From Raja brachyura (taxonomy: Eukaryota), in the NCBI GenBank assembly GCA_963514005.1, contig OY740804.1:41850001-41914000 (forward strand): a stretch of DNA of 64,000 nt, read 5' to 3'. Below are positions 8,803 through 23,749 of this stretch, piece by piece. Position 1 is the first letter of the stretch; the number at the start of each line of letters is the position of its first letter. Position numbers and translations under genes: made by a program. A model generated the notes under the pieces. It had not been told where the DNA came from. It searched no databases and saw nothing but the letters and a program-made list of their open reading frames with translations.

Positions 8803-9418
8803 TGTTGATTCCGGATCTAATACTATCCCTTAGCCTGGTTCAGTCAATCATTGAAACAAACACTTTGGAATCCAAACTCTTCTTTAATTGTAAATGGGAC
8901 CACAGGGCCGGACCTGGATCTACTCACTCAAGCCCTCAGCAGCCGCGTGTGAACAGAACAGAAGAAAGAGACAATCGGCACGCCCAAACAAATTACCTAC
9001 TCTTTTATACCCCTGAACGGGGTGGGGATAGTAAAGGCACAAAAATGCAATGGGAGGTGCATTCCTCCATGCCAATCACTTGTTACAGATAAGAGATCAC
9101 ATTAAGAGGTACTTACTCTGCTTACTTACAAACAATGTATACAAAAACACAACACACATACTACATATAAACACAGCATCCATTGCACAATCACAGAACA
9201 GGGTTTAGTGTTTGTTTAACGGAAACCCAGAATTGGTGACACCGAGGGCTTCTTTGGATCAGGAACAGTTGGGAGCTTCTTTACAAACCTAGACTTGATG
9301 ACAACATTTAATTACATGAGCCTCTTGCACCTGGTGTCTCTTAGTCACCTCAGCAAAGCTTGACCTTTTTCACGGAAGCCTGCCACGTCCAAAGTACACG
9401 AACCCCTGCATATCTACA
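8803..9418 (-). repeat. ERV 3' LTR (616 bp)
   Basis: Minus strand TGTAGATATG...AATCAACA; TATAAAA at ~9003-9009; ATTAAA at ~8883-8888; homologous to 20003-20123 plus 23297-23749. Confidence 0.92.
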
Positions 9419-9430
9419 TTCCCCTCTTTT
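9419..9430 (-). promoter_or_regulatory. Polypurine tract
   Basis: AAAAGAGGGGAA immediately before the TG of the 3' LTR. Confidence 0.9.
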
Positions 9431-9741
9431 ATCATTCCATGATAATCAGCTCTTTCCATAAAGGATTCCACTACATGATCTTTACAAGCAGGGTCCATGA
9501 TTCAGTCATCCAACAGTGATGATGATGGAGTTTCCATAAGTGTCTGCTTCCCGACTTTGCATGGGCACGGCAGATTCTCTGGCATTCGACCAAGAGGTCT
9601 TCACCTCCCGCCTTTGTATGGGCGTATATCTTCTTGGGCCCATCACATTAGCATACTTTCTTCCTGTGACTGGTTGTTCAAGGTATATGAATGGCAGCTG
9701 TGTCTAAGGGAGATTTCCCCCAAAAAGATAAAGTTAACAGT

Positions 9742-11735
9742 TTAAATCTTACAACTGACAATTTTACAATGGTGAAGGTGAACCCACGCATTTCTCACTT
9801 CTACCTCAGCAGCAGTCGGGGTTGTGAGGAGGACCTGATAAGGTCCATCCCACCGAGCATCCATACCTTTCCTTACCAATTTCTTCACCATCACAAAATC
9901 ACCAGGGCCAACTCTAGATGAGGCACATAAAGGTGGTAATTCAATATATGCCGCTTGCACCCTAGAATGTAAATATCTAAATACTTTAGTTAAGGATAGA
10001 ACATAATCAGTCATTTCTGTGGCCATATGATGGAAATGAATAACTTTTGGGGTACTCTGGATCCATGGGGTTCTGAGTGGACGACCTACACAATCTCTGC
10101 TGGGCTCAATCTTGCTCTTCCTGCTGGTGTAGTGCGTATCTGGAATAATGCTACAGGAAGTAATTTAAACCAGTTAATTCCCATTTCGGCTCTTAATTTA
10201 GCTAATTTAGTTTATAATATCTGGTTAGCTCGTTCAACAAGTCCAGCAGCCTGTGGTCGATAGGCGCAATGTAACTGCTGCTGGATGCCCATTTGCTCAC
10301 AGAACTCTCTATTTACTCGTCCTATAAAATGTGGACCATTCTCTAAACGTAGCCGAATTGGAATTCGGTATCTCGGAATAATCTCTCTCATGAGTACTTT
10401 GACCACTTTATTGTCCAATGTAGGATAAGCTTCAATCCATTTACTGAATACGTCCACAATTACTAACACATACTTATATCCCTGACATCTCTCCAACTCA
10501 ATGTAGTTCAACTGGAAGGTTTCAAAGGGACCTCCTACGGGTAAGGGAGTTTTCCCACTTCCACAGCTCATGCCTTTCCCTGGATTATGTTCCTGACAGG
10601 GCAGACAAAGACTACTAATTCTTTGAGCCAGAGTCTGCAACCTCGGATGCCACCATGTGGCTAATAGTGTATCGCTGGTTGCTCGGGCACCACAATCAGT
10701 TGCAAAGTTTACACAATCAATGACGCACATTGTCAGTCATACAGGTTTGTTCTGCCGAGGTAACCCACAGTCCCGACATACAATCAATTTTACACCCAAG
10801 TTAGACAAAAATGCTGGAGAAACACAGCGGGTGAGGCAGCATCTATGGAGCGAAGGAATAGGTGACGTTTCGGGTCGAAACCCTTCTTCAGACTCAATTT
10901 TACACCCAAGTTGCCTCCATATTTTTACATCTTTCTCAGGAGCGTTCCCCTGCAACCTAATGACGTCTTGGATAGTTGGCATTGGCTTTTCCAAGGGAGA
11001 CTTCTTTTTCTCTACCCTTTTCGTCTGCCTCATCATTTTAGGTACAACCACCTTGTGCTCCTGGGACATCTCCTTCACTTCCTGGTCAGCACGACGATTT
11101 CCTATATCTACTGGTGTTTGACCTTTCATATGGGCGCTACATTTCATCACAGAAATTTGTTTCAGCAACATTAAGGCTTGTAACGGGTCTGAAACAAATT
11201 TCTGGTGGGATATCCGAGTTCCTGCTGAAGTTAAGAATCCTCTATTTCTCCACAACTGGCCAAAGTCATGGACCACTCCAAAGGCATACCGGTATAGAGT
11301 CGGTATAAAAGTTCACTCTCAAATTCTCTCCTATGATACAGGCTCTTATTAAGGCAAACAGTTCTGATTCTATCTGTTCTTCCGGTTGGTTCATCAAGAA
11401 AGGATGCCAGGTTGATGTTAGTGCAATATTTGAACTGTAATTTGGGATTATTTAACAAGTATATTTCAGACTTGTTCTGGCGAGCCATGGTGAGGTGTTG
11501 AGTCTGCAGTTGTCCTAGCAAGGCAGCAACTGAATGAGAACTGTATACTATAATGTTCTGCTGTACGGTCAAATTAGCAGTTGATTGCAAGCAGTTGTAG
11601 ATCCCAGTCAGGATCTGTGTGCAGATGGGATGTCCTCGTGCCACAGGGTCAATCTTGGAGAAGTGGTAAGCTACTGGTCGATGCTTGTCTCCATGTTTCT
11701 GGGTTAGAACTGCAATGGACCAATCAGAAAGGATT
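9742..11735 (-). pseudogene. pol: ERV pol 3' part: connection/RNase H/integrase
   Basis: DPVARGHPICTQIL; VHDFGQLWRNRGFLTSAG; WWHPRL...CLPCQEHN; KYVLVIVDVFSKWIEAYP; HCAYRPQAAGLVERAN; [15 protein letters not shown]. Frameshifted, with IN catalytic motifs degraded (QLNY, LENG). Confidence 0.92.
10803..10893 (-). ncRNA. 91-bp Penelope pLTR-derived insertion carrying a minimal hammerhead ribozyme motif
   Basis: 19-bp direct repeat TCAATTTTACACCCAAGTT (10784-10802 and 10894-10912); minus strand CTGAAGA-A-GGGT-TTCG-ACCC-GAAAC-GTC. Confidence 0.8.
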
Positions 11736-12042
11736 GTACAGTATAGTAGAAACGGCCGATCATAAAATGTTTCAAGACTTCTTCAGACAATTGAAACTTG
11801 CTCCCCACACTAGTATATGACATCAATTTTTTAGTGTCCAGAGCAATGTTACTGTCGACAACATTATCTCATTTGCTTTGCTTCTCGTGGTGCAGGGAAT
11901 TCACAGATTGGTTCGGCTCAGCTGCTTTCCAGTCCGTTCGGTTGCTGATAGTTTGTATCAGGCCGGGCAACGTTAGTAGACCGCCTGATAGATAGATATG
12001 GCAAATTTGTTTAACTTTAATGGCATGGGTGCACTATACTTA

Positions 12043-12629
12043 AGGCCTGTCCCACCAGCACGCAACTATATGCGATGAACGCGATCAAACCGGCAGCGGG
12101 GGCCGCGCGGAGGTCGGGTGATCCCCTGTACAGGGCCGGTCCCACCAGCATGCGCCTGCATGCGGCAAGCGCAACTAAACCGGCAGTAGGGGCCGCGCGG
12201 AGGTTGGGTGAGTGGCGCAACGCGGCGCAAAGCGAGGCGAACTTGAAGCAAGTCCAAGGTAAGTTCACCAGGACTTAGAGGGGCACACAGAGAGGGGCAC
12301 CGAGACACACACACATACAGGGCCACGGAGCCACACACATAGAGGGTCACGAAGGCACTTACAAATAGTTTCACGGAGGCACGATGTCCGGGCGGTGTGT
12401 AAATGTCGCGGCGACTGCGAGCCGACAAACCGTTGCCGCGCGGGATTTTTGGACATTGTCGGTTTTTCGGAGCCCCGCGCGGCGTCTGGACGAACTCGGG
12501 ACGAACTCCGCACAATTCCGCACGGCTCCGGCGATCGAAGTGGGACCGGCCCCGCGACGCCGGACGGCTCAAGCGACCACGTTAGGTCGCGCTAATCGCA
12601 TCGAGTTGCATGCTGGTGGGACAGGCCCT
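12043..12629. mobile_element. PIF/Harbinger-type MITE
   Basis: TIRs AGGCCTGTCCCACCAGCA...TGCTGGTGGGACAGGCCCT; TTA TSDs at 12040-12042 and 12630-12632; same TIR family as 4249-4906. Confidence 0.85.
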
Positions 12630-12866
12630 TTACTCTTTAAGGGGGAAGGATGGAGATTAGCTTATGCATGCATCCAATCTTATATAGGTTAACATCACTA
12701 ACCCCACCTTACTGTATCATTTATATTAACACCCACTCCCTATGCTACGCAGTTCAGGTGGCAGACAGGACGCAGTGACAACTAGCATGCTACTGTGCTG
12801 TTAAGTCTGTATGTGGATTAAAGATGATCTTAAATTACATGCCGTGTATATGTCATATTTATACAC

Positions 12867-12963
12867 ACCAAGGAACTTCACCTTGTGCTGGGCCATTAAC
12901 ACCTTTGATGGGAGACTACATATCCCAATGTCGATAAATGATTTAATAGATGAGTTGAGCGGT
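12867..12963 (-). pseudogene. pol: ERV RT fragment just downstream of YVDD
   Basis: Reads KDTAQ/LLNHLSTLGYVVS/PSKVLMAQHKVKFLG across frameshifts; continuous with 15386 once the foldback is removed. Confidence 0.75.
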
Positions 12964-13190
12964 ATCTTTGCGCGTGTGCAGACGTGGCGCCGACGGACGA
13001 GAAGCCGAAGCAAAGAAGTCGAAGCCAAAGAACCGAATGGAATGAGGCCGAAACGCCAAAAAACTGAAAGAGTACGAAGACAAAACACCAACTAACCAAA
13101 AGGATGGGACGCCTAAAAGCCAACTAACCGAAAAACTGCGTTGCCTCAAAGCAAACTCTCCGAATGGCCGCTCTGTCGAAACGCCACCAT

Positions 13191-13962
13191 TACCTTTTTT
13201 ATTTTTATTTTTAGTCCTGTTAAAACAAAATGTTTGTTGGAGGTCTTCTTTTATGTGGTGGGTGGGGGAAGGGGAAGGGGGAAACTTTATTTCTAGTCCC
13301 TACCTGGTCGGAGCTGCTTCTTCGCCCCGTCCTCGCGGCCTACCATTGGACAGGGGCGGCACTACCTGTCGGGACCGGCCGGGACTACAGCTTCAGTGGC
13401 GGCACAGCGCTGGGACACAATCACGGAGCGGGCGATGCCTTACCGGGTCACCGTGCGGTAAGCTCCGGAGCGCTGTGACCGCCGACTCCAGCATCGCGGA
13501 GCTGTGGCTGCGGAGCGTCCGGCCGCGGGCGCCGCTGGGTTTAAAACATCGTGGAGCCTGGGATCCGAGATTGCCAGAGTCGGAGCTGCGACCGGCGCGG
13601 CCTGTGGACTTCGGGAGCCGCGGTCTCCGGGGAGGAAGCGGCCGCTCCAGACATTTCCAAGCCGCTGACGAGTGTTCACCCGACGCCGGGGTTCCATCTT
13701 CCCGGCAGGAGGGCCTGAAAACATCGGACTGGCTGCAGAGGCCACAAATAGGCCACGAGATCACAGAGGAAGAGGACTGAACTTTTTGATGCCTTTCCCC
13801 ACAGTGGAACATTTTGATTCTGTTGTGGGGGGATGTTCATGTTGAATTCTATAATGTGTTGTGTCATTTTTCTTTTATATTTTTTCTTCTATGTAAAGCA
13901 CTTTGGTTTCAATGCGAGTTGATTTAAACGTGCTATATAAATAAAATGTACTTACTTACTTA
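13191..13962 (+). mobile_element. GC-rich non-LTR element fragment inserted in the left foldback arm
   Basis: Absent from the right arm; ends AATAAAATG(TACT)n. Confidence 0.55.
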
Positions 13963-14240
13963 ACGTTGCCAGGGGGCGGGACCTGTCAGCGAGTGGTCCA
14001 GACCCCCGGGTGCATCACATCACTGTGGAGGGATGAACATTGTCCCACACCTCTGCTCCACCCGATTCACAGCCCGCGGAGGGTGGCCTTGGGAGAGTGG
14101 GGGCTGCCCCGAGGGATGCGCACCTTCGGCCGCTTACAACTTGGTGCTTGGGTTCAGATTGCCTACTCACCTATGGCCTTTGTGGAAAAATGACCTCCAC
14201 CCTCCCGTCTCCCCCTTCCCTCTCCCCTCTTCTCTCTCCC

Positions 14241-14379
14241 NNNNNNNNNNNNNNNNNNNNNNNNNNNNNNNNNNNNNNNNNNNNNNNNNNNNNNNNNNNN
14301 NNNNNNNNNNNNNNNNNNNNNNNNNNNNNNNNNNNNNNNNNNNNNNNNNNNNNNNNNNNNNNNNNNNNNNNNNNNNNNN
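14241..14379. other. Assembly gap inside a CT-rich microsatellite
   Basis: Run of 139 N. Confidence 0.99.
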
Positions 14380-15385
14380 CTCTCTCCCCCCTCTCTCTCC
14401 TCTCTCTCTCTCCCTTCTCTCTCTACCCCTTCTCTCTCTCCTCCTCTCTCTCCCCATCCTCTCTCTCTCCCCCCCTTCTCCCTCCAGTTCTCTCTTTCTC
14501 TCCCCTTTCTCTCTCTCCTCCTCTCTCTCCCCTTCGTCTCTCTCCCCCCTCTCTCCCTTCTCTCTCTCCCCTTCTCTCTTTCTTCCCCTTTGCTCTCTCT
14601 CCCTTCTCTCTCTCCCTTCTCTCTTATCCCCCACCCTCCTCTCTCTCCCCCACTTATGCAGAGCGGCTATGGAAATTGAGCAAACTGGCAGCGGTCCGTG
14701 TGAAAATACAGCACCTACCAAGGTGAGAAATAGAGAAGGGGAGAAAGAGAAGGGAGAGAGAGGGGGAGAGAGGGAAGGGGGAGAGAGGGAAGAGGGGAGA
14801 GAGAGAGAAGGGAGAGAGATAAGGGAAAGAGAGAGGTGGGAGAGAGAGAAGAGGGGAGAGAGAAGGGGGAGACGAGAGGCTGGGGGTCATTTTCCCACAC
14901 AAGCCATAGGTGACTGGGCAATCTGAACCCAAGCACCAGGTTGTAAGCGGCCGAAGGTGCGCATCCCTCGGGACAGCCCCCACTCTCCCATGGCCACCCT
15001 CCGCGGGCTGTGGGTCGGGTGGGGCGGAGGTGTGGGACAATGTTCATGCCTTCGCAGTGATGTGATGGATGCAGGGATCTGGACCAATCGCTGACAAGTC
15101 CCGCCTCCCGGCAACGTCATGTCCGTTATTTGACTTTTCTGTTGCCGTGTAGACGACGCCGCCTTTCGGGTAGGTGGCGTATCGACAGAGCTGTCATTCG
15201 GTGAGTTTGCTTTTAGGTGATGCAGCTTTTCGGTGAGTTGGCTTTTAGGCGTCGTGCCCTTTCAGTTAGTCGGCGTTTCGTCTTCGTACGCTCTCGGTTT
15301 TTGGCGTTTCGACCTCGTTTCCATTCTGTTCTTTGGCTTCGACTTTGCTTCAGCTTCTCGTCCGTCGACGCCACGTCCGGGTGCC

Positions 15386-15985
15386 ATCTTTGCAGTTGCT
15401 TTGTTCATCCTGGCTGGCCACAAGTAAATCATCCACATACTGAAGTAGGGTGGAACCACATCAAAAGCTTCAGCTTTGCAGCTGTCCTTGGAGACATCTG
15501 GTGAACAATGTTGGAGAATTCACAAATCCCTGAGGTAATCGAGTCCATGTGTACTGTTGCCCATTGTAGGTGAAGGCGAAGAGGTACTGGCTGTCCTGAT
15601 GGAGAGGTAATGAGGAGAACGCATGTTGTAAATTCACTATTAAAAAGATCTGTGCATGTGCTGGAATTTGGGCTAAGAAGTGAGCTGGATTAGGCACCAA
15701 TGCGTGAAGCGGTTCTACGATGGCATTAATGGACTGCAAATCCCAAACCAATCTGTATTCATCCGGTTTCCCTGCTTTGCGTACTCTGAGGATAAGCATG
15801 TTACAATAGGATTGACATTTAACCAGGATGCCTTGTTCTGGCAATCCTTGAATTAACTTATCAATGCTTGGTATTGCCTGCTGCTTCAGCGGATACTGTT
15901 GTATAGCAAGCAGTGCTACATTTTTCTTGAGAGCTACCTGGATGGGAACAATCGGAACACATCCTGAGTCCGGTCTTCTGCCCAC
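15386..15985 (-). pseudogene. pol: ERV reverse transcriptase (N-terminal/palm)
   Basis: QYPLK...EYRLVWDLQSIN...FAFTYNGQQYTWTRLPQGFVNSPTLF; YVDD at 15428-15439. Confidence 0.95.
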
Positions 15986-16124
15986 ACCTGTGGCTCCACA
16001 TACGCTTGTACCTCACTCCCCAGATGATGGCGTAACTGCTTTGTAACCTTCCTTGGTGGCTGACAAAACTGAACAGTGCAATCATTAGGCAGCTCTTGTT
16101 CATGCCTCCTGTTTCGATTTGCCA

Positions 16125-16420
16125 GACTGATTGCTCGTTTAACTATAGCTCCTAAATCTTTTGCATGAGATGGGAAATTCACTTTCTTTGTTATATGCGG
16201 GGCAACTTCAGAAACCTGCTTCCATAATTCCGAAGGCACGTCAGCATATTCTGCTGTTCCCTGTGGTCTGATAACTAATGTCAAAAGATTTACATCCCAC
16301 CTAGTTCCTTCATAGGATTTGAAAAAAATTTCCAGCTCTACATTTTTACCACTCCGATCATATGCTAAGGTGATATGAAGCGGGGCCTCATCTTCTAAGT
16401 CTAGACACCACCATTAAGGT
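16125..16420 (-). pseudogene. Putative 2H phosphoesterase (LigT-like) domain between ERV protease and RT
   Basis: One frame reads WWCLDLEDEAPLHITLAYDRSG...VSEVAPHITKKVNFPSHAKDLGAIVKRA; His codons at 16375-16377 and 16195-16197. Confidence 0.75.
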
Positions 16421-16469
16421 GTCACTGACCAATAACACCATGGGGTTACAGTTATTCCCTTGTCTCCAC

Positions 16470-16790
16470 ACTCAGTTTTCAGCTGGAATGCACAGAGCAA
16501 ATCCCGAACTAACAGACTACAATCAAGATGTGTTGTAATTACGAATTGATGCAGCACTGTCTTGCTTTGGTATGTTACTTCAACTGGCATAGAGATGGGG
16601 AATTGGCATACTTGTCCTTGGAATCCGGACAGGCTCTGGGCCTCGTTAGATTAAGGAAGATTGTAAATGGACTGAATAGGTGACATGAATGCCCCTGTAT
16701 CTACCAAAAGGTGCATCTTCTTCCCTCTACTTTCACTGATAAAACAGGTTCCTCATCAGTATTGCACCCGTTCATCACCAAATTGGCCAG
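16470..16790 (-). pseudogene. pro: ERV aspartic protease
   Basis: EEPVLSVKVEGRRCTF/LVDTGAFMS (DTG at 16693-16701) and CSLLVRDLLC (LLGRDLL motif). Confidence 0.9.
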
Positions 16791-18714
16791 TCAGTTCTGG
16801 GAAAACTGATTATTGTGGGAGAAGTTTGTTTGCCTCCCCTGTCCTCGATTCCTCTGCCAACCTCCCCTTTGCTCTTGCTGATAGCCCCCTCTTTCTTGTT
16901 TTCGTGTTGGACACTCCCTGCTCCAATGACCATACCCGCCAGAGCTATAACAGCGGTCTGGTCCCAACGCTCTACTCACTCTAAAACGTGGCTTTGAGGA
17001 AACATAGGGTTGGCTGTAAGTGGGGGCACATAGCTCATGGGGGTAACCTGGAGTCCCACATTCCTGCATCTGAGCCCATTCTGACGCACAGAACCGGGGT
17101 CCTGTTTGGTAATTGCTAGTGTCTGGATTATCTCTCGGTATCTCCTTTTCAATGACATAATCCGTTTTTACTTTCGTCTGAGGCTGATTTTCCAGTTTTT
17201 TATTGTCCTTCCAATGGTATCTAACTGCACGGGCCATTTGACGCGAACTATTCTCAGATCAGTCCATGTTATTCGTTTTTATTGCCTCTGCCACAGCGGC
17301 TGACAGGCAGTTCACCAAAATTGCACAATGCTGGAGAGAATTTGCACCGTACCGATAATTAACATCTCCCGACTGGTCGATATACATTTTCAGAAAATTT
17401 CTCCAGAAATTCGTCTGCCCCTCTCTTCTCTGATGTTCAAAATTTTAGAAATATTAATAGGTTTCTGCAGAGTGATTGTAAGGGCAGCTCGGATGGCATC
17501 CTCTCGTGCCGTGCTCTGGGCAAGCAGCTTAGCTAGTGTGTCATGAGTTGGGGATGCCAAGTTCACCAAGAGTCTCCATGTTCCGTTTGGGTTAGAACTT
17601 GTTGTACTCAAGCTCATAAATCTCTCGAGTCTGCATGATACACTCTTATTGTAGCTCGGAGGTAATCTATACATGTGCGGGAGACTTTTTCCTATCAGGC
17701 ATCCGGCTCAGTATGGCTATCATTTCATTCGGTTTCCACGGGGAATAAACATTCATTGTTTGAGTGCTTCCTGCACCAACTGCAATCGCTGGATTAAAAG
17801 TGGGGTTAGGCATTTCTGTAACCGGGAATTGGCAGCGAGCAGTTTGTCGCTCAACCCTCTTGTCTGCCCTTGCCTCGGCACAGTGTCACAAGAGGTCAAA
17901 TCGCTCTCCAAATCTATGCTCTCAAGTGTGGGAATGTGATCTCTTGGTCTGCGCTTTTCCCTTCTGGATTTAGGGGGTTCTTTAACTGGTTCTTGATCTT
18001 GTGGTAGAGGCATACAGAATCTCCTAGTTTTGCTCCTAGTGCCGCGTGCAACTGGAGCATCTGCCAATTTCAGGGCCGTTGGGTTCACAGAACTCTGAGT
18101 TGGATCTGCTGCAGGGGACGCAGGTGGTATTATGGGATCAATATATGCAGGAGGGGCAGGAGGGGCATAAGGTGGGGATTGTAAACGATTCCTAATATGG
18201 ACACTTTCCCAATCTTCTAAGTACTCATCATCTCCTTCATCCAAGCCAAAGCCTACCATTGGATCACGCAATTCTATATTACTATATTCCTTTAACGCAT
18301 CCGGGGTCTGCTTGGACTCCCGTTCTTTATATTCTCTATAAGCACAAGTACATTCCTTTTTCAGCTTATCCATAGGTTTGACAATTCCTTCTTCCATCCT
18401 AGTCTCAAAGCCATTTCCTGCCATTCTGCCAACAGCTTAGCTTCTCTTTGATCCTTCAAATCTTGATAATGCTCTCTCCAGAGACCAATAAGCCTTTTAG
18501 CGTGATCATTTCGACAGTATTTCCAAATTATCTTTTCTATGTACTTCACACTCTCGAGGGTTCCATTCCCTCCTTTGTGCCATAAGTCACACCCTAACTT
18601 CTCATTCAAGATTCCAGACAAATGCTTCAATCGTTCCACTTCTTCTGGATATTTAACACACAGGATCTGCAATGGGCTCTCAGTGTCACTAGCGGTATCT
18701 AGATGATTCCCCAT
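16791..18714 (-). pseudogene. gag: ERV gag
   Basis: Starts MGNHL (myristoylation-type MG); proline-rich SPPYAPPAPPAY; degenerate zinc knuckle CYSSGGYGHWSREC; TGA at 16791-16793; several frameshifts. Confidence 0.85.
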
Positions 18715-19982
18715 TTCTGCTAACAATCAAACGAAAGATTGATCCACACACCAACACAATGCCGCACTTCACACGCTCTTATCTCCTGTCAACCCAGGCC
18801 TCACACCATTCACAGGCAGTTCTCAAAGTTTCTTAAAGTGGTAAATTAAAGTGGTAAACACACAATGTCTTAAAGCGGCATCACAGTAGCACAATCTACC
18901 GAACTTAATCACACAATCTTAAAATATGTAGCAATAGCACAAGAACAAAATCACACTTAAGCAAGAGAACCTGAAGCAAAAGCATATGCTACTATAATAC
19001 AGCTGCAAAATCACACTTAAACAAGAACATATACAGCTAACTCCAACAATACAAAAGCAAAGTAGAATATAAGCATACAATTACACTTAAAGTGGCAAAT
19101 TACACATTAGCAGCTCTAATACAGAAGTATATTACACAGATATGATACAAGGGTAGCTTACAATTACAGTACAAGAGTAAATTACAATTATAGTACAAGC
19201 AGAAGCAAAATCATTCAACATGAACACTTCAAATTTAGTGGAATTTAGACTCGAAGAATTTGGATCGCACAGTCCTAGAATATCACAGACGCATCCTCTC
19301 AATTTCAGTACTCATTTTTACAGCAGCTATGCCAATCTACCTTAGTGCTGATCCCAAGTACCAACAAGGACTCGAACCCTTCAGAGGCAGGGACTCAAAC
19401 CCCAAGGATTCAAACCTTCCTACCTGCAAGATACTGATCCTCAGCACTTACTCCGCTCAGCGCTGGCTCTCAGTACTTACCCCGCTTGGTACTGAATCTT
19501 CCCAGTATCGTCTTTCAAGGGACCCTGCCAATTAGTACCTTAATACCGGGCAGGGACTCTAACCCTGGGACTTTAACCCTTCTAAGGTGGGGACTCAAAC
19601 CCTCTAGGGACTGACCTTGTGAGCCTGACCCTCACTCAAACCTGGGTCTCTAATCCCTTAAAACGGGGACTCGAACCCCACAGGAACCTGACCTTATGTG
19701 CCCGCCCTCACCTAAACGTGGGACTCGTTTAGGTGAGGACGGGCCCGAACCCCACAGGGCCTCCAACCCTCACCCAAACCAGTGTTCGCCAGACTGCGAA
19801 CCTTAATCCATCTCATCAGCAATCCACGCACAAGTCAGCGAATGACTAATTCGTCATCGGATTAGCGGAGCGGGGAAAACCGATGCAGCATAAACTACTC
19901 ACACCAGGGCACCTATTTCTCCTTCCACGATCCACGACAACTTAGCTCCATGATCGCAGACTCGCGTTGGCAATCCGTTGAG

Positions 19983-20000
19983 ATCCCGGATGAGCCCCCA
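19983..20000 (-). promoter_or_regulatory. Primer binding site, tRNA-Pro
   Basis: TGGGGGCTCATCCGGGAT, one mismatch to the classical Pro PBS TGGGGGCTCGTCCGGGAT, 2 nt from the LTR end. Confidence 0.92.
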
Positions 20001-20002
20001 AA

Positions 20003-20123
20003 TGTTGATTCCGGATCTAATATTATACCCTTAGTCTGGTTCAGTCAATCACAGAAACGAACCCTGGAATCCAAATTCTTCTTTATTTGTATATGGTACT
20101 GCGGGGCCGGACTCGGTGGATCT
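20003..20123 (-). repeat. ERV 5' LTR, U5/R portion
   Basis: Homologous to 8803-~8920; adjacent to the PBS. Confidence 0.9.
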
Positions 20124-23100
20124 CGGAGAAGCAGCAATCAAAGACAATCAGGTAGAAGAGCTTATTGGCTGAAACCCGTGGGAAATAAGGTAAGTCAAAT
20201 AAGGTGAGGGGAATAAACGGTTTAAAACTGAGCAATTTGATTTGTAAATTGGCAAATTAGGCAATTTATCAGCCAATATAAGCAAGGTTGCTCTAGGGGA
20301 GCGGCAGTGAGGGAGCGGCCTTGTGTGTCTTTAGCTTGAGAGTCTTTGGAGAGGAGGCTGAGCAGAGGAGACTATGCAAAAGGCTGGTAAGGACGGGACG
20401 CGGTGAACGCTGGTAAGGACGGGTAAGTGTGATGCTGGCAGGATGTGGGAGGCCAGGGACACGGATGGAGCCTCTGGCTGCTACAATTGTGGCTGCGTCC
20501 AGGTTCAGCTGAAGGACCATGTTGGGGCACTGGAGAAGCAGCTGGATGACCTCACGGCCATTTGGGAAAACAAGTGTTTCCTAGACAGGACCTACAGTGA
20601 GGTTGTCACGCCGAGGATATGAGAAGACTGAAGGTGTGTGACGGAGAGAAAGGGTAGTAACCGTGGAGTGCAGGAGACCCAGGTGGCTGCGCCTAATACA
20701 AACAGGTACGCCCTCTTGGGAAATGTCGGGGGAGACGATGCTTCCAGTCCGAGCAGCGGACACGTCGGTGGCTCCAATCCTAGAGATGGGACCGGCAAGA
20801 CCGACGTCGGGCAGAGCCCTAGAGGTGGGTGCAGACAAGAGATTCTGTGGAGGCAGACGAGACGCGAGGATGGTCTGTTGCCTCCCTGGTGCCAGGGTTC
20901 AAGATGTCACGAACAAATTCAGAACATCCTCAAGAGGGAATTTGAACAGCCGGCAGTAGTTTAGAGGTATAAAAGTGTAGGTCATTCATTGCTTTCTCCC
21001 ATAAGAATCTTTCTTCCTCTTTGGAATGAACTGATCCTGCACCTTCTGAATTATTCCCAGAAATACCTGCCATTGTTGTTCCACTGTCATTCTTGCTAGG
21101 GTATCTTTCCAGTCAACTTTGGCCAGCTCCACCCTCACGGCTCCATAGTCCCCTTTAATCAACTGTAACACTGACACCTCCGATTTACCCTTCTCCCTCT
21201 CCAACTTGACCACTCACTACCTCCTAATGGCTCCTTAACCTCAAGTTCCTTTATCAAATACGGTTCATTACATAACACTAAATCCAGAATTGCCTTCTCC
21301 CTGCTAGGTTCCAATACAAGCTGCTCTAAGAATCAAATTATTGGGTATTGGGGGTAGAGTGCTGACATGGATAGAAAATTGGTTGGCAGACAGGAAACAA
21401 AGAGCAGGGATTAACGGGTCCCTTTCAGAATGGCAGGCAGTGACTGGTGAGGTACCGCAAGGCTCGGTGCTGGGACAACAGCTATTTCCAAATACATCAA
21501 TGATTTAGATGGGATTCAAAATAACATTAGCAAATTTGCAGATGACACAAAACTGGATGGCAGTGTGAACTGTGAGGAGGATGCTATGAGAATGCAGGGT
21601 GACTTGGACAGGTTGTGTGAGTGGGCAGATGCATGGCAGATGCAGTTTAATATGGATAAATGTGAGGTTATCCACTTTGGTAGCAAAAACAGGAAGGCAG
21701 ATTATTATCTAAATTGTGTCAAGTTGGAAAAGGGGAAGTACAACGGGATCTGATGGGGTCCTTGTTCATCAGTCAATGAAAATGAGCATGAAGGTACAGC
21801 AGGCAATGAAGAAAGCAAATGGCATGTTGGCCTTTATAACAAGTGGAGTTGATTCCAGGGATGGCGGGACTGTCGTATGCTGAGAGAATGGTGCGGCTGG
21901 GCTTGTATACTCTGGAGTTTAGAAGCATGAGAGGGAATCTTATTGAAACATATAAGATTATTAAGGCTTTGGACCCGCTAGAGGCAGGAAACATGTTCCC
22001 GATGTTAGGGAAGTCCAGATCCAGGGGCCACAGTTTAAGAATAAGGAGTAAGCCATTTAGAATGGAGGCGAGGAAACACTTTTTCTCATAGAGAGTTGTG
22101 AGTCTGTGGAATTCTCTGCCTCAGAAGGCGGTGGAGGCCGGTTCTCTGGTTACTTTCAAGAGAGAGCTAGATAGGGCTCTTAAAGTAGGTATGTTACAAA
22201 ACTTACCTTCAGCGGCTCTGCAGTTCTGTCACTGGCCGTGTGCGCAACTTTGGCGCCTTTGAGAGGGGGGTGGGTTTAAAATGCGATATTTCTCCAGCCT
22301 GTTCAAATCGATTTTGAACAGGTTGATTAGCTGCTGAAGAATAATCGCTCCGACATTGGTTTTATTAATTTCATTTTAAACTGCACTGGACAATTTAATG
22401 ACTGAAGTAAATTAAAAAGCATCTTCTAAAGCCGTCAACGCCGACAACGGGGACGGATTTCACGTACGGGACAGGTAAAAGAAAGCCGTTTATTTTACAT
22501 ATAAACTTGCTTCTTGGGATGCCTTTAATCAAAATTTCACGTTGCAAAAAGGTGATTATGTAAATATACGAACCGGCAGTATTTTGCCTGCCGATATGGG
22601 GTTTAAATTCACTGCAACCGCAACGTTCCTAACGATCGCGTTCCACAAAATCCCACTCACAAGATGATTTAAATGGCCATTCATTTACGGGAATTAAACA
22701 CTAAATTCCTTCCATTTGGCCTATAAATTAATGACAATGAGATTTAAAAATCATGTTATATTGTGAATTCTTGTGTGAATGTTATTTGGACACTTAGTCT
22801 ATTTAAAAATGTTAACCTTTTTTTAAAGAAATTGATGGATGTTTAGATCTAGTAATTGAATTTTGCAATTAGCTACAATTAGGTAACTAACTAATTATAT
22901 GCTTTAATTTCAGGTCATCCAAGTAAGATTGTTTCATATTTGTTTCAGAATGCTCCAATATATAATAACTGAACATTTCATTCAGTTCTCTTAATTTTTA
23001 AGAAAGTTATGGGCTTTTGTCTGTCCTTGATCACAGCTTTTGAGTTAAGTCAATAGAAAAGCAATAGGGAACAAGATGCTAATTTCCAAGTATGAAAACC

Positions 23101-23296
23101 ACCATAACTCTTTTAATACTGAAGATATGAAAGTGAATTAGGTGTCAAATTAAACTTCTTTTTATGCTTTATCTGATGGGATAAATTGCAGACTTGATTT
23201 TTTAAATCTCAAAATGTTGTAACATTGCTACTTAAAGCGGAGTCAGGGGATATGGGGAGAAGGACTGAATGGTCTACCCCTGCACCTATTGTCTAT
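20124..23296 (+). mobile_element. Internally deleted and rearranged CR1 LINE inserted in the 5' LTR
   Basis: TSD TGGATCT (20117-20123 and 23297-23303); 5' UTR similar to 47100-47375; ORF1 remnant FCGGRRDARMVCCLPGARVQDV; inverted ORF2 piece at ~20986-21330; RT 3' end and CR1 tail. Confidence 0.85.
22186..23230. mobile_element. hAT-like non-autonomous DNA transposon inside the CR1
   Basis: Imperfect TIR TAGGTATGTTACAA / TTGTAACATTGCTA; flanking direct repeat CTTAAAG (22179-22185 and 23231-23237). Confidence 0.7.
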
Positions 23297-23749
23297 TGGA
23301 TCTACTCAACCGAGCCATCACCAGCCTCGTGTAAACCAAACAGAAGAAAGAGACAACTGGCACGCCCAAACAAATTACCTACATTTTTATACCCCTAAAC
23401 GGAGGCGGGAACACCAAAGGCACAAAAATGCAATTGGAGAGCCATCCCTACATGCCAATCACTTCCAGATAAGAGATCAGTTAAGAGGCACTTACTCTGC
23501 TCACTTACAAACAATGTATACAAAAAAAAATTAACACACACACCATGTTTAAACATAAAATCCTTTACCCAATCGCAGACCTGGGTTTAGCTTCTGTTTA
23601 ACAGAAACCCAGACTTGGTAGCACCTTGGGCTTCCTTGGAACAGAAACAATTGGGAGCTTCTTTACAAATCTAGACTTGATGGCAACATTTAATTACTTT
23701 TCACAGAAGCCTGCCATGTCCAAAGTACCCAAACCCCAGCATATCTACG
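23297..23749 (-). repeat. ERV 5' LTR, U3/R portion
   Basis: Homologous to ~8915-9418; followed by the TSD ATAC. Confidence 0.9.

Follow-up and report, generated by a model that had tools for sequence, protein, structure and literature searches.

The window, a stretch of 64,000 nucleotides from the cartilaginous fish Raja brachyura, contains a real and conserved 2H phosphoesterase domain, encoded between the protease and the RT of an endogenous retrovirus. The domain is CNPase-like and represents a shortened form of a type already known from fish retroviruses. We give a probability of roughly 0.6 to the reading that it is a CNPase-type 2',3'-cyclic phosphodiesterase, which on the basis of its predicted structure would open cyclic phosphates on RNA ends or nucleotides to 2'-phosphates.

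The domain lies in a provirus that spans about 8803-23689 on the minus strand and is nearly complete yet decayed. The order between the LTRs is primer binding site, gag, protease, 2H domain, RT, RNase H, and integrase. The features, in the direction of transcription of the provirus, are as follows.

20003..23689, minus strand: 5' LTR, in two parts (20003-20112 and 23297-23689) split by an insertion of ~3.2 kb
19985..20002, minus strand: primer binding site, adjoining the 5' LTR
16791..18726, minus strand: gag remnants, ending in a CCHC zinc knuckle (zf-CCHC, E 0.007)
16450..16734, minus strand: retroviral aspartic protease with a DTG motif (Pfam RVP, E 0.022)
16015..16413, minus strand: 2H phosphoesterase domain, predicted CNPase type, short form (AF2 model and Foldseek, 133 residues modelled)
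16369..16377, minus strand: first HxT motif (His codon 16377-16375), with a Tyr at His+5, the offset of CNPase Phe235
16189..16197, minus strand: second HxT motif (His codon 16197-16195)
16123..16164, minus strand: predicted helix from the second His+11 (model residues 84-97), in the place that helix alpha7 takes in CNPase
15395..16012, minus strand: 5' part of RT, to just past YVDD (Pfam RVT_1, E 8e-14)
11860..15390, no strand assigned: foreign sequence of ~3.5 kb interrupting RT, with ~80 RT codons missing
9742..11853, minus strand: RT tether, RNase H, and integrase with an MLV-type C-terminal domain, in several broken frames
8803..9307, minus strand: 3' LTR, 85-88% identical to the 5' LTR

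The two parts of the 5' LTR match the 3' LTR at 329 of 389 (85%) and 96 of 109 (88%) aligned bases, and the primer binding site presumably belongs to the tRNA-Pro type, which we take it to resemble. A single stop closes gag in the reading frame in which the protease region begins, an arrangement that, as far as the sequence can tell, would fit read-through expression. The protease can be aligned with the RVP part of a skate Pol and is broken at its 5' end by a stop and a frameshift, while RT is frameshifted near 15964 and then interrupted by the foreign sequence. The region downstream of this interruption gives Pfam matches to RT_RNaseH, RNase_H, rve, and MLVIN_C. The alignment of the whole pol region with an intact skate Pol falls into seven pieces and includes six stops. 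Only about 430 bases separate the end of integrase from the 3' LTR, and the gap is similar in the sister copy L086 (about 410-430), so we regard the subfamily of the window as env-less. The window copy is dead and unable to make the 2H protein. The architecture and the homologues, rather than an RT phylogeny, are the basis on which we label the element an epsilon-like retrovirus.

Two insertions have lengthened the provirus. The one within RT contains nested inverted repeats (12981-13188 with 15377-15173, and 13963-14238 with 15117-14842) and a central CT/GA-rich tract around a run of N, and part of it resembles a stretch in the host locus L109; it is possibly a foldback or non-autonomous DNA element. 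The one within the 5' LTR (20113-23296) sits at a short duplicated motif and holds pieces repeated elsewhere in the window that resemble a CR1-type LINE.

The 2H domain is read from a minus-strand, stop-free open reading frame (15934-16413) that holds LHITLAYD and APHITKKV, followed by KDLGAIVK. The original prediction had placed these motifs, with no strand given, in the frame that continues from the protease, with their histidines exactly 60 codons apart, and the reading frame bears this out. It had counted a single in-frame stop, at ~16415; this stop is present (16414-16416), but a second one, at ~16651-16653 inside the protease, had been missed. RT does lie downstream of the domain, as proposed, but not straight after KDLGAIVK: about 45 intervening residues, which fold as a beta-hairpin in the model, still belong to the 2H domain and bring its end near 16015. 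The extent first given (16125-16420) therefore includes both motifs but cuts the domain short, and the true N-terminus is probably up to ~8 codons upstream of the modelled part, on the far side of the stop at 16414-16416. Both motifs are intact, as had been remarked, but in a dead and env-less copy this reflects only its past. The motif pair is weak evidence when taken alone, because a loose version of it, with 50-100 residues between the motifs in one stop-free frame, occurs twice in the six frames of the window (the pair described here and one other); the plus-strand frames contain no such motifs. We judge the domain to be real because it is conserved in homologues and has a fold match.

A profile search of 1.84 billion representative sequences resulted in 31 matches and a second search in 29. 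We took one of the 31, the repeat protein P0020, to be spurious and did not count it further. The sources, looked up by name for 10 of the 31 matches, are skates, a catshark, an electric ray, cichlids, catfish, killifish, a mullet, goodeids, and a mormyrid, and the nearest named homologues are those of skate and catshark. In the longer homologues, including intact skate and cichlid proteins, the domain also lies between protease and RT, and the teleost endogenous retroviruses (ERVs) have 60-63 residues between the histidines. Two of the cichlid ERV Pol proteins with the domain (P0017 and P0018) bear the source names "RAD9B" and "neuronal calcium sensor 1"; their Pfam content is retroviral. We aligned 60 rows, of which many are near-duplicates; among the rows that cover each of the four motif positions, the motif residue is retained in 52 of 54, 52 of 55, 51 of 53, and 50 of 53 (Thr or Ser at the last). 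Searches with the single sequence for longer homologous proteins, phage records, and viral contigs gave no matches.

The occurrence of 2H domains in fish retroviruses and WDSV is stated in PMC9503650, citing Mazumder 2002, and PMC4977317, citing Basta 2009, mentions that epsilon-like fish ERVs sometimes encode a CNPase. The caution in the original prediction that a 2H domain in pol of fish epsilon-retroviruses is not new was thus well placed. Its statement that it knew of no established function for the domain also agrees with our literature search, which found no functional test of a retroviral 2H domain in a coverage that leaves out most subscription journals.

Copies in the host genome show that the domain was under purifying selection. 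The search of the host genome scored 150 of 682 candidates, all of which matched, and we analysed 50 copies: the top 30, including the window, and 20 from lower ranks. Among the covered copies, the first His is kept in 46 of 48, the first Thr in 44 of 50, the second His in 45 of 50, and the second Thr in 42 of 49. For the selection test we took 44 copies from three subfamilies (8, 8, and 28), leaving out six intermediate copies, and computed transition-weighted dN/dS, since unweighted dS saturates against the most distant subfamily and pairs are lost. The net dN/dS of the 2H domain between subfamilies is 0.23 (bootstrap 0.10-0.46), 0.21 (0.12-0.36), and 0.22 (0.12-0.36). For the protease the value is 0.13-0.19, and for RT, where a single comparison was possible, it is 0.06. 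Changes private to single copies have a dN/dS of 0.91, 0.84, and 0.90. The contrast between net values of ~0.22 and private values of 0.84-0.91 shows that the domain was held under constraint for as long as the virus was replicating, and that its inserted copies have since decayed neutrally. The expectation that the HxT motifs would be conserved among related copies is thereby confirmed, with purifying selection at a net dN/dS of 0.21-0.23. In the comparison of subfamily A1, to which the window belongs, with A2, which lacks RT, net dS is 0.75 in the protease and 0.18 in the 2H domain, a contrast that suggests recombination between the two domains.

We modelled the structure of the domain with AF2 and compared it with known structures using Foldseek. 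An earlier model from 24 close copies had a pLDDT of 42.5, and its Foldseek result is meaningless. The model from 43 rows, which include distant homologues, covers 133 residues with a pLDDT of 90.4 and a pTM of 0.83, and places both HxT motifs on strands. Against the PDB it has 51 matches at E up to 0.001, and all those listed are 2H enzymes. Down to rank 49, every listed row is a vertebrate CNPase or RICH structure (TMq 0.65-0.76, best E 1.1e-5), except for one chain of a fungal tRNA ligase (6u05, TMq 0.59, E 1.4e-4). Four matches reach E 0.001 in a library of viral structures: the polyproteins of the fish retroviruses WEHV1 (TMq 0.72, E 2e-6) and WDSV (TMq 0.68, E 1.5e-4) and two unnamed entries. 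Giant-virus RNA ligase proteins come after these best rows, and rotavirus VP3, HKU5 ORF4b, a coronavirus ORF2, and Acb1 reach only TMq 0.34-0.41 (E 0.13-0.25). The fold match substantiates the 2H domain that had been predicted between protease and RT. The analogy with NS2 and VP3 drawn in the original prediction is not supported as the leading interpretation: the domain is not closest to the AKAP7/NS2/VP3 group (TMq 0.37-0.41, against 0.65-0.76 for CNPase), TM scores are 0.59-0.76 for CNPase and fungal tRNA-ligase chains against 0.34-0.41 for the viral enzymes, and ray-finned fish, which lost OAS and RNase L, commonly carry homologues that keep both motifs.

Sequence comparisons trace this kinship faintly. 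The model is 10-15% identical in sequence to CNPase, and hhalign against the host CNPase gives a probability of 19% (E 0.0012); 196 of 2,000 shuffles score as high with the short-form profile and 3 of 2,000 with a long-form profile. The window domain itself has no Pfam match. Matches to four 2H families come from its relatives alone and never reach the curated thresholds: LigT_PEase (4 of 24 and 4 of 32 rows), 2_5_RNA_ligase2 (5 of 32), PF08302 (tRNA_lig_CPD; one homologue, E 0.028), and Acb1 (one long-form homologue, 1 of 32 rows, E 0.012). PF05881 (CNPase) was not matched in the Pfam scans or the genome search, nor AKAP7_NLS in the Pfam scans. Searches of PDB sequences with the domain returned nothing relevant, and the best score in the ESM Atlas (0.81) pointed to no family.

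Individual residues agree in part with the CNPase fold. The row alignment has a Tyr at the first His+5 in 38 of 43 rows and a Gly at the second His+15 in 41 of 43, where the host CNPase has F and G, and the helix of model residues 84-97 starts at the second His+11, where alpha7 of CNPase begins; the equivalences to Phe235 and alpha7 were set by offset and pairwise alignment rather than by an inspected superposition. According to PMC4643303, no other 2H enzymes have helix alpha7, which possibly determines stereospecificity, and Phe235 is needed for base stacking. The equivalents of Arg307 and Val321 are not kept, the alignment having mostly Ala at the second His-2 and Lys at the second His+12. 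The window domain also differs from CNPase in size (133 residues against ~210), in the spacing of its histidines (60 against 82 in the host gene), and in its place inside a viral polyprotein. Its model also resembles the fungal cyclic phosphodiesterase domain of 6u05, though it has neither a kinase nor a ligase domain beside it. We conclude that the domain is a 2H phosphoesterase with a predicted CNPase-type fold, CNPase-like but not a CNPase.

The resemblance might mean that the domain is mainly a binding or assembly module, e.g., a mimic of host CNPase, with catalysis secondary. The predicted fold would suit such a role, and host CNP is listed in PMC7471995 as an interactor of HIV-1 MA that inhibits particle formation. 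The best-kept residues are nonetheless the catalytic His and Thr/Ser, whereas identity to CNPase at the surface is 10-15%, and we consider a binding module highly improbable.

A catalytic role of the CNPase type would start with expression inside Gag-Pol by read-through of the gag stop, from which the viral protease would release the domain. The enzyme would then open 2',3'-cyclic phosphates, on RNA ends or nucleotides, to 2'-phosphates. The likely benefit would be to clear the cyclic-phosphate ends that host nucleases leave on viral RNA, primer tRNA, or signalling fragments. The domain is ~75 residues shorter than the CNPase catalytic domain and may therefore have a different pocket; substrate also varies among 2H enzymes that share a fold. 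Among the three candidate substrates first named, the CNPase-type model favours 2',3'-cyclic phosphates and leaves 2-5A and cGAMP in a weaker position. The purpose could still be immune-related, because RNAs with cyclic ends can trigger RIG-I/MDA5, NLRP3, and TLR8 signalling (PMC8406329).

The immune function tied to the first-listed candidate substrate is the cleavage of 2-5A by a 2',5'-phosphodiesterase, which would block RNase L in the manner of NS2/NS4b and the VP3 C-terminal domain. MHV NS2, MERS NS4b, and rotavirus VP3-CTD are virus-encoded, as is the window domain, and together with AKAP7 they belong to the 2H superfamily with paired HxT/S motifs. Other viral 2H domains do destroy 2-5A, as reported in PMC8406329, and the OAS-RNase L pathway is described in cartilaginous fish in PMC10400998. 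The genome of the host agrees with the latter. It includes 11 separate matches to the central OAS1_C exon, nine of them clustered on one contig (C30:8623454-8788673) and the others at C7:92534369-92537262 and C3:33885277-33885477; counted as exon matches, these suggest an expanded OAS family. A gene that combines ankyrin repeats, a kinase, and a KEN nuclease exon, the architecture of RNase L, lies on contig C10 (~23371156-23381854, minus strand; L105, L108, and L109). This gene emerged from a looser search and overturned an interim view that the host lacks RNase L. Beside it, L107:2-3533 contains long open frames with an RT-like region, presumably of a DIRS-like retroelement distinct from the provirus.

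The model lies much nearer to CNPase than to VP3, ORF4b, or coronavirus ORF2. Cichlids, catfish, killifish, mullet, goodeids, and a mormyrid harbour homologues whose motifs are intact, and ray-finned fish have lost OAS along with RNase L (PMC10400998). Because the ERVs of these fish keep both motifs in hosts without OAS-RNase L, the cleavage of 2-5A fails as the general function of the domain, and we regard it as unlikely. It could hold for the short form of cartilaginous fish even if not for the teleost form.

This possibility is best discussed with the two size classes of the domain. The distance from the first aromatic strand to the first His is 11-18 residues in the window family, skate, catshark, and some unnamed records, and 34-39 in the teleost and electric-ray proteins, with the shortest form lacking 22-28 residues relative to the long form. 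The register between classes depends on the aligner, since E-INS-i pairs the two first strands and the default mode does not. The extra segment of the long form reads as a probable helix in its sequence pattern. Every one of the 14 long-form rows is recovered by the short-form profile, at 50-62 bits. We built a tree from the core common to both forms, using 38 of 43 rows after leaving out five short fragments; it puts the classes on opposite sides of one branch (support 100/98); its root is arbitrary, long branches meet at the split, and several truncated rows were assigned to a class by kinship rather than by a visible N-terminus. This shortened clade without the 22-28-residue segment is an addition of the present analysis, as is the subfamily without RT described below. 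It is conceivable, though doubtful, that the retroviruses of cartilaginous fish, hosts that would have retained and enlarged this pathway, evolved a trimmed, 133-residue CNPase-fold enzyme that disarms OAS-RNase L. The loss of the helical segment would then open the cleft to oligonucleotides, and the enzyme would cut 2-5A or open the immunostimulatory cyclic ends left by RNase L. If this were true, it would be the first retroviral antagonist of OAS-RNase L on a CNPase scaffold and among the smallest 2H enzymes.

Two further substrates compete with the 2',3'-cyclic phosphates of our preferred reading. Retroviral DNA is a ligand of cGAS, and cGAS-STING is probably retained in fish. A nuclease that cleaves cGAMP, as phage Acb1 does, would blunt the sensing of reverse-transcribed DNA and, given this retention, would have a target common to all hosts. 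The Acb1 match of one long-form homologue noted above fits such an enzyme. The Acb1 models, however, match the domain at only TMq 0.34-0.39 (E 0.18-0.25), and the eukaryotic viral 2H enzymes tested in PMC8406329 did not cleave 2'3'-cGAMP, which makes cGAMP a very unlikely substrate. The other candidate is ADP-ribose 1''-2''-cyclic phosphate or a related product, which the domain would open in a conflict over NAD or ADP-ribose. 2H domains are known or predicted to resolve this compound (PMC9503650), and some fish epsilon-like ERVs carry macro domains instead of 2H (PMC4977317). Against this, no macro domain came up when the provirus frames and 29 homologous proteins were scanned with Pfam, and the Foldseek matches listed, which are CNPase/RICH and one fungal ligase chain, include no CPDase-type entry. 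We see this activity as distinctly unlikely.

The domain also persists in a non-autonomous subfamily made up of gag, protease, 2H, RNase H, and integrase, from which the polymerase domain of RT and the greater part of the tether are missing. Its members share one deletion junction and a one-base frameshift soon after the 2H domain.

L003, L008, L011, L020, L022, and L064-L083, host genome: loci of the RT-less subfamily

The search with the junction scored 40 of 291 candidates, and 31 of the 41 matches listed (query included) cover at least 290 of the 301 bases across it. Hence, there are at least 31 such copies, and 18 of the 20 fetched show no RT. We considered whether 2H was selectively kept after the loss of RT, which the dN/dS of shared changes does not support (2H 0.65, RNase H 0.61, integrase 0.40, from few changes). 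Remnants of env follow integrase directly in 2 of the 20 copies, a search with a distant cichlid protein in which misses are possible: L083:5614-6722 (TLV_coat, E 4e-7) and L079:2027-2278. Since these two copies keep them, the lineage must once have had env.

Overall, the discovery is modest because the domain was known and the copy is a decayed fossil. The window element differs from the walleye and teleost systems in the absence of env and in its cartilaginous host, and its domain type was reported in 2002 and 2009; what is added is a narrowing of the scaffold to the predicted CNPase type. With the 2H domain, some retroviral Pol proteins contain a fourth enzyme, constrained to nearly the same degree as the protease (0.21-0.23 against 0.13-0.19), and the host range of the domain argues against 2-5A as a general substrate. 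The two natural size classes, found in hosts with and without RNase L, offer a clean comparative assay. If the domain acts on cyclic-phosphate RNA ends, it would point to an unrecognised step in the handling of retroviral RNA or primers, or a means of dampening RNA sensing.
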